11,541 nt of DNA, from the IMG/VR virus record IMGVR_UViG_648276671_000001, positions 1-11,541 of that record; one strand, written 5' to 3'. The position numbers were made by a program, and so were the translations under genes. This DNA is from a virus (lineage: Duplodnaviria; Heunggongvirae; Uroviricota; Caudoviricetes). The stretch's first letter is position 1. Each line of letters starts with the position of its first letter. A model generated the notes under the pieces. That model was not told the DNA's origin and did no database searches. It saw only the letters and a list, made by a program, of their open reading frames with translations. Of this stretch, positions 300-7,132 are shown one piece after another.

Positions 300-403
300 A
301 AATAATCCTCTTGATTGTATTTAACTATTACTTGCCTAATTCAACAGGCAGGGACAGATAAACATATCCAGAGTACAGAACCTGTAAATCCTGATAAATA
401 TCC

Positions 404-934
404 ATGAACGTAAAAGTCAGATACGGCCTGTCGGCAGCTGTACTGGTGCTGATTGGTGCAGGTGCGTCTGCTCCTCAGATACTTGATCAGTTTCTGGACG
501 AAAAAGAAGGTAACCACATAACGGCATATCGTGATGGTTCTGGGATATGGACCATCTGTCGTGGTGCCACGATGGTGGATGGTAAACCTGTTATTCCGGG
601 CATGAAACTGACGAAGGAAAAATGCGCTCAGGTTAATGCCATTGAACGCGATAAGGCGCTGGCATGGGTGGAGCGCAATATTAAAGTGCCGCTGACCGAA
701 CCTCAGAAAGCGGGTATCGCGTCATTTTGTCCCTATAACATTGGCCCCGATAAGTGTTTTCCGTCGACGTTTTATAAACGGCTGAATGCAGGTGATCGTA
801 AGGGTGCCTGCGAGGCGATTCGCTGGTGGATTAAGGACAGGGGACGCGATTGCCGCATTCGTTCAAATAACTGTTATGGTCAGGTTATTCGTCGTGACCA
901 GGAAAGCGCATTAGCCTGTTGGGGGATAGAGTAG
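404..934 (+). CDS. R: phage endolysin, T4-lysozyme-like (GH24) muramidase with N-terminal SAR (signal-anchor-release) domain
   Basis: 176-aa ORF. The N-terminus ([18 protein letters not shown]) is a Gly/Ala-rich weakly hydrophobic segment typical of SAR endolysins. The catalytic E-x8-D-x5-T spacing is present in [16 protein letters not shown]. Sits immediately upstream of Rz/Rz1. Confidence 0.9.
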
Positions 935-1371
935 TGAGCAGAGTTGTCGCGATTATTTATGCTCTGGTTATCTGCATCATCGTCTGCCTGTCATGGGCTG
1001 TTAATCATTACCGTGATAATGCCATCACTTACAAAAAGCAGCGTGATAAGGCCACATCCACAATCGCTGACATGCAGAAGCGTCAACGTGATGTAGCAGA
1101 ACTCGATGCCAGATATACAAAGGAGCTTGCTGATGCTAACGCGACTATTGAAAGTCTCCGTGCTGATGTTTCTGCTGGGCGTAAGCGCCTGCAAGTCGCC
1201 GCCACCTGTGCAAAGTCAACGACCGGAGCCAGCGGCATGGGCGATGGAGAAAGCCCAGGACTTACAGCAGATGCTGAACTCAATTATTACCGTCTCCGAA
1301 GTGGAATCGACAGGATAACCGCGCAGGTTAACTATCTGCAGGAGTACATCAGGACGCAGTGCTTAAAATAA
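934..1371 (+). CDS. Rz: i-spanin Rz (inner-membrane spanin subunit)
   Basis: GTG at 934 overlaps the R stop (taGTG). Product begins [34 protein letters not shown], an N-terminal TM segment followed by a coiled-coil-like periplasmic domain, closely matching lambda Rz as I recall it. The ORF track extends it to a TTG at 919, which I consider less likely. Confidence 0.85.
1133..1318 (+). CDS. Rz1: o-spanin Rz1 (outer-membrane lipoprotein), embedded in the +1 frame of Rz
   Basis: ATG at 1133 is preceded by AGGAG (1121-1125). Product [20 protein letters not shown] has a lipobox (VSAC) followed by a proline-rich mature peptide ([13 protein letters not shown]), and lies entirely inside Rz in another frame, which is the classic Rz/Rz1 arrangement. 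Confidence 0.8.
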
Positions 1372-1408
1372 TTTTAATTTCACTGAAATTTAACAAGTGA
1401 CTTTCAGG

Positions 1409-1437
1409 AAAATGCCTCGCAGATGCGGGGCATTTTT
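1409..1437 (+). terminator. rho-independent terminator-like hairpin downstream of Rz/Rz1
   Basis: Stem AAAATGCCTCGC (1409-1420), loop AGAT, stem GCGGGGCATTTT (1425-1436), then a T-run. The A-run on the 5' side and T-run on the 3' side make it potentially bidirectional. Confidence 0.5.
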
Positions 1438-1589
1438 GTACCGGTATTTCACCGCGCACCGCAGCGCACAATAAACACCGAACCTGACCCTTTGGAATGG
1501 GCCTTTGAGGATACCAGTTAGTGCTGGCGAGCCTCGGTGGGCTGGTTTCCTGTGCGGCAAAGGTTCATTTCAAAGAGTAGGCATACGAC

Positions 1590-2138
1590 ATGAGTGAATT
1601 AATTGAGACTTCTGATTTTGACTTTCGCCAGTTAGTTACCGCAGCAGAGGGTGAGCCGGTAACTGACACCTTCCAAATCGCAAAGGCTTTTGGTAAGCGT
1701 CACGCGGACGTATTGAGGGCGCTGAAAAATTGTCATTGCTCAGAAGATTTCCGGAGAGCGCATTTTTGCGTTGCCGAAAAAATCAATGGCTTAGGGATTT
1801 TCGACAAGAAGCAGACTTACTACCGCATGGACTTTAGCGGCTTCGTTATGCTGGTTATGGGATTTAATGGCGCAAAAGCCGACGCCGTTAAAGAGGCCTA
1901 TATAAATGCCTTTAACTGGATGTCAGCAGAACTCCGTAAGTACAGCGAAAGTTATGAAGCAGAACGCAACGCCATAATGCTGGAGTATATGAAAGAGAAG
2001 GATGTCGCCAGTATGTCTGGCCGCCTGCTCAATCGCTGGGGGAGAACGAAAAAACCTCAATTGCTTGCAAAGCTGAAACGCCTGGAGAGACAGGGACAGT
2101 TTTTATTACCGGGATTCGATAAGGGTATTCAAGCCTGA
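1590..2138 (+). CDS. Rha-family phage regulatory protein (candidate)
   Basis: 182-aa ORF. The N-terminal region (TDTFQIAKAFGKRHADVLRALKN) matches the conserved FGKRH-x-VLR motif of the Rha family (Pfam Phage_pRha) as I recall it. Occupies the locus where lambda carries bor. Confidence 0.65.
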   Translation: MSELIETSDFDFRQLVTAAEGEPVTDTFQIAKAFGKRHADVLRALKNCHCSEDFRRAHFCVAEKINGLGIFDKKQTYYRMDFSGFVMLVMGFNGAKADAVKEAYINAFNWMSAELRKYSESYEAERNAIMLEYMKEKDVASMSGRLLNRWGRTKKPQLLAKLKRLERQGQFLLPGFDKGIQA

Positions 2139-2325
2139 CACATCATGCGCTGTATCGTCGCTGTATTCCCGCATTAACCATGACCGTAGCCCGACAGGGA
2201 ATTCCTTCTGCGTGAGTGTGCGGGAATAATCAAAAACGATGCACACCGGGTTTTACTGTGCTGACAGACGCAGGGTTACCCTCATAGTCGCTTTTCCGGT
2301 GCGATGGTGGAAGAAACCGGGATGT

Positions 2326-2520
2326 TTATTCATCATCACTTTGGATTGATGTATATGCTCTCTTTTCTGACGTTAGTCTCCGACGGCAGGCTTCAATGAC
2401 CCAGGCTGAGAAATTCCCAGACCCTTTTTGCTCAAGAGCGATGTTAATTTGTTCAATCATTTGGTTAGGAAAGCGGATGTTGCGGGTTGTTGTTCTGCGG
2501 GTTCTGTTCTTAGTTGACAT
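2326..2520 (-). CDS. small basic protein (64 aa), YlcI/YnfO-like (DUF3950) candidate
   Basis: Minus-strand ORF MSTKNRTRRTTTRNIRFPNQMIEQINIALEQKGSGNFSAWVIEACRRRL, with a basic N-terminus and a short ribbon-helix-helix-like core. A homologous small ORF lies in the same place near the lambda right end and next to nohD-type terminase genes in E. coli prophages; both statements are from memory. Confidence 0.65.
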   Translation of the reverse strand: MSTKNRTRRTTTRNIRFPNQMIEQINIALEQKGSGNFSAWVIEACRRRLTSEKRAYTSIQSDDE

Positions 2521-2687
2521 GAGGTTGCCCCGTATTCAGTGTCGCTGATTTGTATTGTCTGAAGTTGTTTTTACGTTAAGTTGATGCAGATCAATTAATA
2601 CGATACCTGCGTCATAATTGATTATTTGACGTGGTTTGATGACGTAGATGCACGTTGTGACATGTAGATGATAATTATTATCATTTT

Positions 2688-2886
2688 GCGGGTCCTTTCC
2701 GGCGATCCGACAGGTTACGGGGCGGCGACCTCGCGGGTTTTCGCTATTTATGAAAATTTTCCGGGGAAAATCATGTCGGTACTTCTCGAACATAACTATT
2801 TGTTTTTTCTAATATCGAATCCGTAAAGGTCCGACATGAAAACGCCTAAAAAAGTCATTTTCGGGCACTTTCATGTCGGCCCCTGT
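2688..2886. promoter_or_regulatory. cos: cos site: lambda-type right end/cosQ region (2688-2719), cosN with the 12-nt cohesive end GGGCGGCGACCT (2720-2731), and a non-lambda cosB (about 2763-2886)
   Basis: 2688-2760 matches the lambda right-end/left-end junction as I recall it (GGGTCCTTTCCGG.GATCCGACAGGTTACG | GGGCGGCGACCTCGCGGGTTTTCGCTATTTATGAAAATTTTCCGG). Downstream of that the sequence diverges from lambda and carries three copies of TCATGTCGG. Confidence 0.85.
2771..2879. repeat. three 9-bp TCATGTCGG repeats in cosB, candidate terminase small-subunit binding sites (R3-, R2-, R1-like)
   Basis: TCATGTCGG at 2771-2779 (+), its reverse complement CCGACATGA at 2831-2839, and TCATGTCGG at 2871-2879 (+). 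These lie about +51, +111 and +151 from the cosN cohesive end, with the middle copy inverted and an AT-rich spacer (2780-2830) between the first two, the same architecture as lambda R3-I1-R2-R1. Confidence 0.6.
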
Positions 2887-2906
2887 ATTTATTGTGAGAC
2901 TGTTTC

Positions 2907-3426
2907 ATGAAGGTTAATAAAAAGAAACTTGCCGAAATTTTCAACGTGGATCCGCGAACGATTGAACGCTGGCAGTCTCAGGGACTCCCTTGCGTCTCCG
3001 GAGGTGGTAAGGGCGTTGAATCTGTATTTGATACCGCCATGGCAATTCAGTGGTATGCGCAGAGGGAAGCTGATATCGAAAATGAAAAACTCCGTAAAGA
3101 GGTTGAGGATTACAGGGCTGCCAGCGAGGCAGATCTCCAGCCTGGGACTATTGAGTACGAACGCCATCGACTTACGCGTGCGCAGGCTGACGCCCAGGAG
3201 CTGAAGAATGCCAGAGACTCCGCAGAAGTGGTGGAAACCGCATTCTGTACTTTCGTGCTGTCACGGATCGCAGGTGAAATTGCCAGTATTCTTGACGGGA
3301 TCCCTCTCTCGGTACAGCGGCGTTTTCCGGAACTGGAAAACCGACATGTTGATTTCCTGAAACGGGATATCATCAAAGCCATGAACAAAGCAGCCGCGCT
3401 GGATGAACTGATACCGGGGTTGCTGA

Positions 3427-3452
<26 letters not shown>
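2907..3452 (+). CDS. Nu1: terminase small subunit (Nu1-like); the N-terminal DNA-binding domain resembles the NohA/phage-21 type, the C-terminal part is lambda-like
   Basis: 181 aa. From about residue 75 ([57 protein letters not shown]...) it matches lambda gpNu1 as I recall it. The N-terminus ([29 protein letters not shown]) instead resembles the NohA/NohD-type prophage proteins. Confidence 0.9.

Positions 3453-7132
<3,680 letters not shown>

Follow-up and report, generated by a model that had tools for sequence, protein, structure and literature searches.

A P22-type rha gene in an exchangeable late-operon cassette of a lambdoid prophage, set between two apparently uncatalogued RNA elements

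IMG/VR record IMGVR_UViG_648276671_000001, whose 11,541 nucleotides (nt) are referred to here as the window, represents the late region of a lambdoid prophage in which the slot under study (1372-2325), downstream of the lysis genes, is occupied by rha, the gene for a predicted phage regulator. The gene is already known and, judged by similarity, is P22 rha set into a lambda-type head module; the added value of the analysis resides in two conserved RNA elements found around it. The slot belongs to a cassette with a recurring order, namely Rz, an intrinsic terminator, a small hairpin, a leader of ~100 nt, an open reading frame (ORF), a conserved element of ~180 nt designated EL, and the packaging genes, and among relatives the ORF varies while the cassette flanks are kept. 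The leader and EL are apparently conserved RNA elements that have so far escaped cataloguing. The whole is probably best understood as an exchangeable cargo cassette of lambdoid and P22-type late operons, loaded in this case with rha, whose cargo would be expressed only late, would be gated at the leader, and would act as a regulator. The slot contains the following features.

1409-1437, plus strand: hairpin of the intrinsic-terminator type with a T-run, directly after Rz (AAAATGCCTCGC-AGAT-GCGGGGCATTTT, then T/G)
1454-1467, plus strand: small hairpin GCGC-ACCGCA-GCGC, between the terminator and the leader
1483-1581, plus strand: structured leader, a long hairpin with a minimum free energy (MFE) of -45.3 kcal/mol; the covariance-model match spans 1480-1589
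1590-2138, plus strand: rha, 182 amino acids (aa), ATG start; Phage_pRha at residues 25-112 and ORF11CD3 at residues 121-174
2146-2323, plus strand: EL, a conserved non-coding element of ~180 nt, read as plus-strand RNA
2152-2158/2236-2242: outer stem of EL
2164-2174/2218-2228: H1, the main stem of EL, which corresponds to an inverted repeat
2256-2260/2269-2273: H3 of EL
2294-2300/2316-2322: H4 of EL

A first-pass annotation of the window had placed the ORF, the hairpin at 1409-1437, and the inverted repeat (2164-2173/2219-2228) at these positions, and both this placement and its account of the genomic context (lysozyme, Rz/Rz1, a DUF3950 gene, cos, and Nu1) stand.

The leaders share a common architecture composed of a lower stem (P1) of ~20-23 base pairs (bp), a 3'-side internal loop of 6-7 nt (UGYGRR), upper stems, and a small apical hairpin; in the window leader this loop has 6 nt. 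Its lower stem is predicted to pair the ribosome-binding site (AGG, 1579-1581) with CCUG at 1483-1486, and in relatives the ribosome-binding site AAAGG pairs with CCUUU. When folded independently by MFE, 20 of 21 highly divergent leaders formed this hairpin and paired their ribosome-binding site, and z-scores ranged from -2.0 to -5.1 for 12 of the leaders. Because MAFFT alone misaligned the divergent leaders (alignment A3), a covariance model (R1) was built from 8 sequences. Model R1 scores the window leader at 122.9 bits, its match adjoins the start codon in P22, in phi80, and in almost every one of 36 species-level loci, and its matches are always much better on the plus strand. In the resulting alignment, A6, compensatory changes occur at 35 of 39 base pairs. 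Doubly changed cells number 239, against 71 ± 8 in shuffled alignments, and none of 500 shuffles reached the observed values. The share of paired cells in A6 (88.1%, against a maximum of 52.9% with the partners slid) is inflated by the fitting of this alignment to the model structure, and it is the independent folds that give unbiased support. The leader probably keeps rha translation off, and its predicted shape, with a coaxial helix of at least ~20 bp and an asymmetric internal loop, resembles that of an RNase III processing site. Rfam 15 returned over the window leader a single chance-level match, DUF805b at 1559-1583 (15.7 bits, gathering threshold 35.6, E 0.6), and, for the leaders of 8 diverse loci, nothing at E <=0.1.

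The leader is not confined to rha. It was found across the Enterobacterales before genes for Rha+ORF11CD3, KilA-N+ORF11CD3, P22_AR_N+ORF11CD3, Rha+ANT, and T5orf172 proteins, and a KilA-N cassette carries nearly base-for-base the same leader up to the start codon. Two extra copies were also detected, one before phi80 ORF x171.28 (3765-3855 of the phi80 locus, L175; 27.7 bits) and the other in Escherichia coli 2013C-3181 (670-775 of locus L005; 37.2 bits), where it precedes a P22_AR_N+ORF11CD3 gene lying between lysozyme and Rz. The 3' half of the window leader holds an upstream ORF of 19 codons, from GTG at 1521 to TAG at 1580, preceded by GAGGA. This ORF was considered as a coupling device and rejected: a comparable ORF is present in about two-thirds of the leaders, some 40% being expected by chance, and neither its frame nor its peptide is conserved.

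The second element, EL, contains the inverted repeat with which the first-pass annotation had closed the insertion on its right. The two arms, TATTCCCGCA (2164-2173) and TGCGGGAATA (2219-2228), are exact complements spaced by 45 nt. Taken alone the repeat is not significant, since chance alone should yield, over 11.5 kb, about one perfect 10-bp repeat of this type within 80 nt (11541 x 80 / 4^10 = 0.9) and the window contains 15 comparable inverted repeats; it becomes significant because it is conserved, with compensatory changes, in 87 relatives. The EL statistics rest on these 87 distinct copies, in which 97% of cells are paired (maximum 61.5% with the partners slid), 7 pairs show compensatory changes, and 52 doubly changed cells stand against 14.1 ± 2.8 in shuffled alignments. 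In H1, for example, TATTCCCGCA/TGCGGGAATA becomes TATTCCCGGA/TCCGGGAATA in lambda, and in H4 TCCGG/CCGGA becomes TCCTG/CAGGA. One-sided changes leave a G-U pair in 274 cases and break the pair in 41 when the element is read on the plus strand, with corresponding values of 12 and 303 on the minus strand, and this plus-strand bias points to an RNA in the late transcript.

EL is widespread. It was found in 432 phage records, including those of lambda (46868 to ~47040, between bor and lambdap78) and many Shiga toxin (Stx) phages, and its orientation is always that of Rz, regardless of the cargo to its left or the packaging module to its right. In a set of 5426 E. coli RefSeq genomes, 3795 match some part of 1372-2325; EL is probably present in most of these, the count being one of matches to any part of the interval. 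Rfam 15 gave no match over EL at E <=1. The earlier view that the cargo gene is bracketed by a terminator hairpin and an inverted repeat is therefore half retained: both structures are real, but the repeat is not specific to the insertion, being part of EL whatever the cargo, lambda included. A terminator scan of 2139-2325 found no terminator-like site; EL has hairpins and short U-runs and no canonical terminator.

What lies between the flanks differs from phage to phage. In annotated relatives the Rz-to-right-flank interval is filled by Rha, by KilA-N with an 85-aa ORF, by iss/bor on the other strand, by DUF6979, by a GIY-YIG-like protein, or by nothing recognisable, and 127 loci with the right-flank element include ~15 with Rha, ~22 with Bor/Iss, and ~11 with KilA-N. 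At least 80% of 1372-2325 is carried by only 292 (~8%) of the 3795 matching E. coli genomes. The Rz-to-cos interval is an exchangeable cargo slot in which rha occupies the place of lambda bor, and rha is accessory, not core, on both counts as the first-pass annotation had proposed. In Klebsiella and Yersinia, too, Rha homologues (74% and 69% identity, respectively) are flanked by lysis and terminase genes; a Rha clade at 52% identity is found in P22-like phages between the injection genes and the tailspike, which corresponds to immI, the site of P22 ant.

On the left, the hairpin at 1409-1437 (-21.4 kcal/mol, z = -4.04, none of 200 shuffles as good) is a predicted intrinsic (Rho-independent) terminator, with a G+C-rich stem-loop and a U-run that are kept in relatives. 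A simple terminator scan did not pick it up, which in our reading may be because extension of the stem consumes the required T-run. Relatives keep a hairpin with T5-8 at the post-Rz site on unrelated stems (GCCTCGC/GCGGGGC, GCCCACG/CGTGGGC, GCCAGC/GCTGGC), so that a putative terminator is maintained there with three or four unrelated stem sequences. In most of 37 rha loci from many genera it stands at about -150 to -160 from the start codon, and the phi80 record annotates the same post-Rz hairpin as a terminator. The small hairpin, of the GCGC-N6-7-GCGC type, is found near -130 in most rha loci, its stem differing from one to another (GCGCC/GGCGC, TTGCC/GGCAA, GCGT/ACGC). A promoter scan of 1440-1589 found no sigma-70-like promoter.

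The protein itself was assigned by the first-pass annotation to the Rha family, and profile searches bear this out: Phage_pRha (PF09669) scores 79 bits against a cutoff of 29.9 in Pfam, TIGR02681 scores 68.2 against 45.95 in NCBIfam, and phrog_518 scores 280 bits in PHROGs. The C-terminal half, thought to lack any recognisable motif, proved to be ORF11CD3 (PF10549; 82.8 bits, cutoff 25, E 2e-23), a domain also borne by the KilA-N and P22_AR_N proteins that take the place of Rha in relatives. The two-domain form of ~180 aa is common across the Enterobacterales. A predicted model of Rha shows two long helices (95-140 and 144-169); fold comparison gave no informative match, and the PADLOC-DB 2.0 defence models gave no match to Rha.

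Window positions 1372-2059 share 94-95% DNA identity with P22 39426-40113, the DNA that directly follows gene 15/Rz1 and includes rha (ORF201), and the Rha proteins are ~93% identical over 178 residues; identity to phi80 Rha is 38%. The 182-aa gene is by this measure an orthologue of P22 rha/ORF201 and a relative of phi80 rha, and it brings P22 upstream DNA with it to the position it holds in P22 and phi80, so the idea of a novel insertion does not survive. Homology to the shared right flank starts at 2118, within the last 7 codons of rha, which derive from that flank, and it is because the 3' junction falls inside it that the C-terminus of Rha is unlike that of P22. The pairing evidence also touches on the start codons. 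In P22 the rha start is annotated at a GTG 23 codons early (2650-2718 of the P22 locus, L001) and in phi80 at a GTG 12 codons early (L175 2240-2275), both inside the leader hairpin, and in the window a TAG at 1578-1580 closes the in-frame GTG extension; the true start in P22 and phi80 is likely the conserved ATG that follows the hairpin. The Pfam/TIGRFAM family description presents phi80 rha as a late-operon gene. The phi80 record annotates rha with 'DNA synthesis inhibition in IHF- hosts', IHF being integration host factor. The phenotype published for phi80 rha and P22 orf201, as related in PMC4936722, is that phi80 and P22 hybrids are growth-inhibited in IHF-deficient hosts.

A working scheme for the cassette can be assembled from these elements. 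The terminator after Rz would stop ordinary RNA polymerase and, since no promoter was found beyond it, rha would be transcribed only by polymerase antiterminated by Q/gp23, late in the lytic cycle, and would be silent in the lysogen. The leader would then limit translation, the ribosome-binding site being sequestered for as long as the hairpin stays closed. RNase III processing would be the most likely opener, favoured because the predicted helix is long and continuous and its internal loop is one-sided, features also of the lambda N leader and the T7 R1.1 sites. Rha, a predicted DNA-binding regulator of the antirepressor type, would harm phage DNA synthesis when over-made; harm through dose fits the phenotype of phi80 and P22 in IHF-deficient hosts and would explain such tight gating. 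The conserved flanks would double as homology arms through which cargo is swapped between phages. A broader formulation can be offered more tentatively, with a little less than even confidence: the leader and EL would be two undescribed families of cis-acting phage RNA and would form, with the terminator, an 'expression socket' in the late operons of lambdoid and P22-like phages. The leader would act as a translational gate for antirepressor-type cargo that may be toxic (Rha, KilA-N, P22_AR_N, T5orf172) in P22, phi80, and Enterobacterales prophages, and EL would punctuate the late transcript ahead of the packaging genes.

Several observations weigh against this scheme. Besides the inflated pairing in A6, model R1 at E 0.01 misses the leaders of loci L134 and L137, although they fold alike. 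Some relatives carry 3' of the small hairpin an A/T-rich, TATAAA-like stretch that may be a weak -10 element. By Pfam, only Phage_pRha and ORF11CD3 are seen in Rha, and the P22_AR_N and ANT (KilAC) domains are absent. Finally, the IHF consensus WATCAANNNNTTR was not found in 1372-1600 at up to one mismatch, which leaves the published link to IHF unexplained.

Rha might instead be a true antirepressor that binds and inactivates a CI- or C2-type repressor, encoded by the same or by a co-resident prophage, and thereby spreads induction in the manner of the Gifsy antirepressors or P22 Ant. The database names 'anti-repressor' and 'putative antirepressor' suggest as much, although they are annotations only; the 52%-identity homologues sit in the place of P22 ant, and a protein with the N-terminal domain of the P22 antirepressor has the same ORF11CD3 tail and is preceded by the same leader. 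Gifsy antirepressors are reported to act in trans, and AnrP expression raises the transcripts of the antQ operon (PMC4825925). Yet Rha itself bears neither P22_AR_N nor ANT, a product made only in late lytic growth would come too late to relieve its own repressor, and the sole recorded genetics is inhibition of growth and DNA synthesis in IHF-deficient hosts. On balance this role appears rather unlikely.

Less likely still is the moron reading, in which rha would be an autonomous unit driven by a promoter of its own within 1440-1589 and expressed in the prophage state to the advantage of the lysogen, for instance through superinfection interference. Presence or absence among closely related prophages is indeed polymorphic, a terminator lies upstream as in classical morons, a weak -35/-10-like pair (TTCACC-16-AATAAA at ~1446-1473) agrees at 8 of 12 positions by our reading, and the A/T-rich box of relatives lies 3' of the small hairpin. 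However, the promoter scan of 1440-1589 was empty, so that a promoter directly upstream, one mark of a moron, was not seen. Relatives do not conserve the candidate hexamers, yet covariation is seen in the RNA stems that separate and follow them, which argues that transcription enters from upstream. The orientation of rha is that of the late operon, phi80 rha has been described as a late-operon gene (PMC4936722), and the PADLOC defence models are without a match. Since no promoter was found, and rha stands on the late-operon strand behind a terminator and a transcribed structured leader, the label 'moron-like' given in the first-pass annotation cannot be kept in its strict sense.

Least of all is it to be expected that the flanks are purely DNA-level recombination linkers, or that the right flank codes for a small minus-strand protein (ORF 2246-2106, 46 aa): both flanks do fall exactly at mosaic junctions, homologous recombination at the module borders of temperate phages is documented (PMC3945230), the minus-strand frame in EL runs 34 codons or more without a stop in 76 of 85 relatives, and RefSeq annotates an ORF there in loci L003 and L010 and a 60-aa hypothetical protein in some genomes, but the frame lacks codon periodicity (column entropy 0.33, 0.20, and 0.32 at positions 1, 2, and 3), its 36% of synonymous codon changes is near the value of another frame, and the stems keep their pairing by double changes and by plus-strand G-U pairs (274 versus 12), strand-specific wobble pairs that linkers alone would not yield. 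A recombination role of the flanks is compatible with the late-operon cassette reading and forms part of it.

The cassette is bounded by the following genes and sites.

404-934: lysozyme gene
934-1371, plus strand: Rz spanin gene (Pfam Phage_lysis, 123 bits), its coordinates set by homology to P22 and E. coli annotations
1133-1318: Rz1, embedded within Rz
2326-2520, minus strand: YlcI/YnfO (DUF3950) gene, right neighbour of the slot (Pfam DUF3950, 72.8 bits; NF041551)
2720-2731: cohesive end of a lambda-type cos
2907-3452: Nu1, followed by terminase A, W, portal, and head genes

Rz is the final gene of the lysis cassette and the left edge of the cargo slot. The cohesive end was placed from the lambda alignment, in which window positions 2309-2719 match the final 411 bases of lambda at 95.6% identity. 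Among complete E. coli RefSeq genomes the lysis-to-Nu1 stretch (300-3500) finds at most ~92-93% identity, and 1372-2325 taken alone has its top match in E. coli Rb-50 (97.7%); either this collection lacks the source genome or the mosaic is an uncommon one. Farther to the right, the gpA homologue (terminase large subunit, 3427-5351) has a 1-base deletion in an A-run at 5146-5151 (A6 in the window, A7 in E. coli Rb-50), and the last 69 residues of the subunit are therefore in another frame (ORF 5130-5351), reflecting either a defective prophage or a sequencing error. Between cos and Nu1 lies an inverted repeat of 25 nt with 80% complementarity and a 5-nt loop (2828-2882; also 2771-2784/2826-2839), for which Rfam returned only chance-level matches to miRNA families and which falls in the region occupied by cosB in lambda. 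A minus-strand ORF of 90 aa (27-299), upstream of the lysozyme gene, matches phrog_2411, of unknown function (E 7e-54), and had no match in Pfam, NCBIfam, or PADLOC searches.

The late-operon cassette reading bears on several established systems. A covarying leader precedes rha in P22 and phi80, the very phages that define the Rha phenotype, and so offers a handle on why Rha does harm in some hosts only, namely through lost control of its synthesis; in both, the annotated rha start codon lies within a non-coding hairpin. The terminator-leader-ORF-element layout would also explain how unrelated cargo can be exchanged at one site and yet remain under late, tightly limited expression. EL, for its part, has no annotation, although lambda and Shiga-toxin phages carry it and most E. 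coli genomes probably do so as well.

The closest known counterpart is P22 rha (ORF201), which belongs to the same family, has the same two-domain build, and stands right after Rz/Rz1 behind the same terminator and leader. The window differs in that its rha is joined to a lambda-type cos/Nu1/A module where P22 has gene 3/pac, in the last ~25 residues of Rha, and in the TAG that closes the GTG extension annotated in P22. In phi80, where rha was defined, the gene again fills this slot and is preceded by this terminator and leader, in the order Rz, annotated terminator, rha, cos. Lambda bor/iss and other Rz-to-cos cargo share the slot and have the same EL at its right edge; bor/iss are expressed from the prophage by their own promoter and lie on the opposite strand, whereas the window rha sits on the late strand, preceded by a terminator and then a structured leader, and the scan of 1440-1589 showed no promoter. 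The KilA-N+ORF11CD3, P22_AR_N+ORF11CD3, and Rha+ANT proteins are alternative cargo of the same cassette and leader, often with the same ORF11CD3 domain, and differ from Rha in the N-terminal domain; they are the domain-shuffled phage regulators described by Iyer et al. 2002, as related in PMC6145125. Two sets of small RNAs (sRNAs) were considered and set aside: the anti-sRNAs AgvB/AsxR of enterohaemorrhagic E. coli are located at the pR' moron site and not in this slot, and the location of the Pas sRNA does not overlap the slot.

With regard to the leader, the RNase III signals of the lambda N leader and T7 R1.1 offer a structural parallel, with a coaxial helix of about two turns, a one-sided internal loop, a location between cistrons of a long phage transcript, and overlap with a ribosome-binding site; the likeness is one of predicted shape only, without sequence relationship. 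A functional parallel comes from Gifsy-1, in which RNA structure keeps the isrK-orf45-anrP mRNA from being translated (PMC4825925). The Gifsy-1 genes are located between Q and the lysis genes, and their control involves an sRNA that acts in trans and arises from the same promoter, together with translational coupling to orf45, whereas for the window rha an equivalent sRNA was not seen and the upstream ORF is not conserved. Rfam isrK has no match in the window; a weak match occurs only in L137, a P22-like prophage of Atlantibacter (4004-4087; 32.9 bits, gathering threshold 50, E 0.002), where it overlaps the 3' end of a rha homologue at an immI-like position. The two systems nevertheless share an antirepressor-like gene placed in a Q-controlled region behind a terminator and silenced, or in the case of rha predicted to be silenced, through mRNA structure, and by this analogy Gifsy-1 may serve as a precedent for the control proposed here for a late-region gene of this kind.

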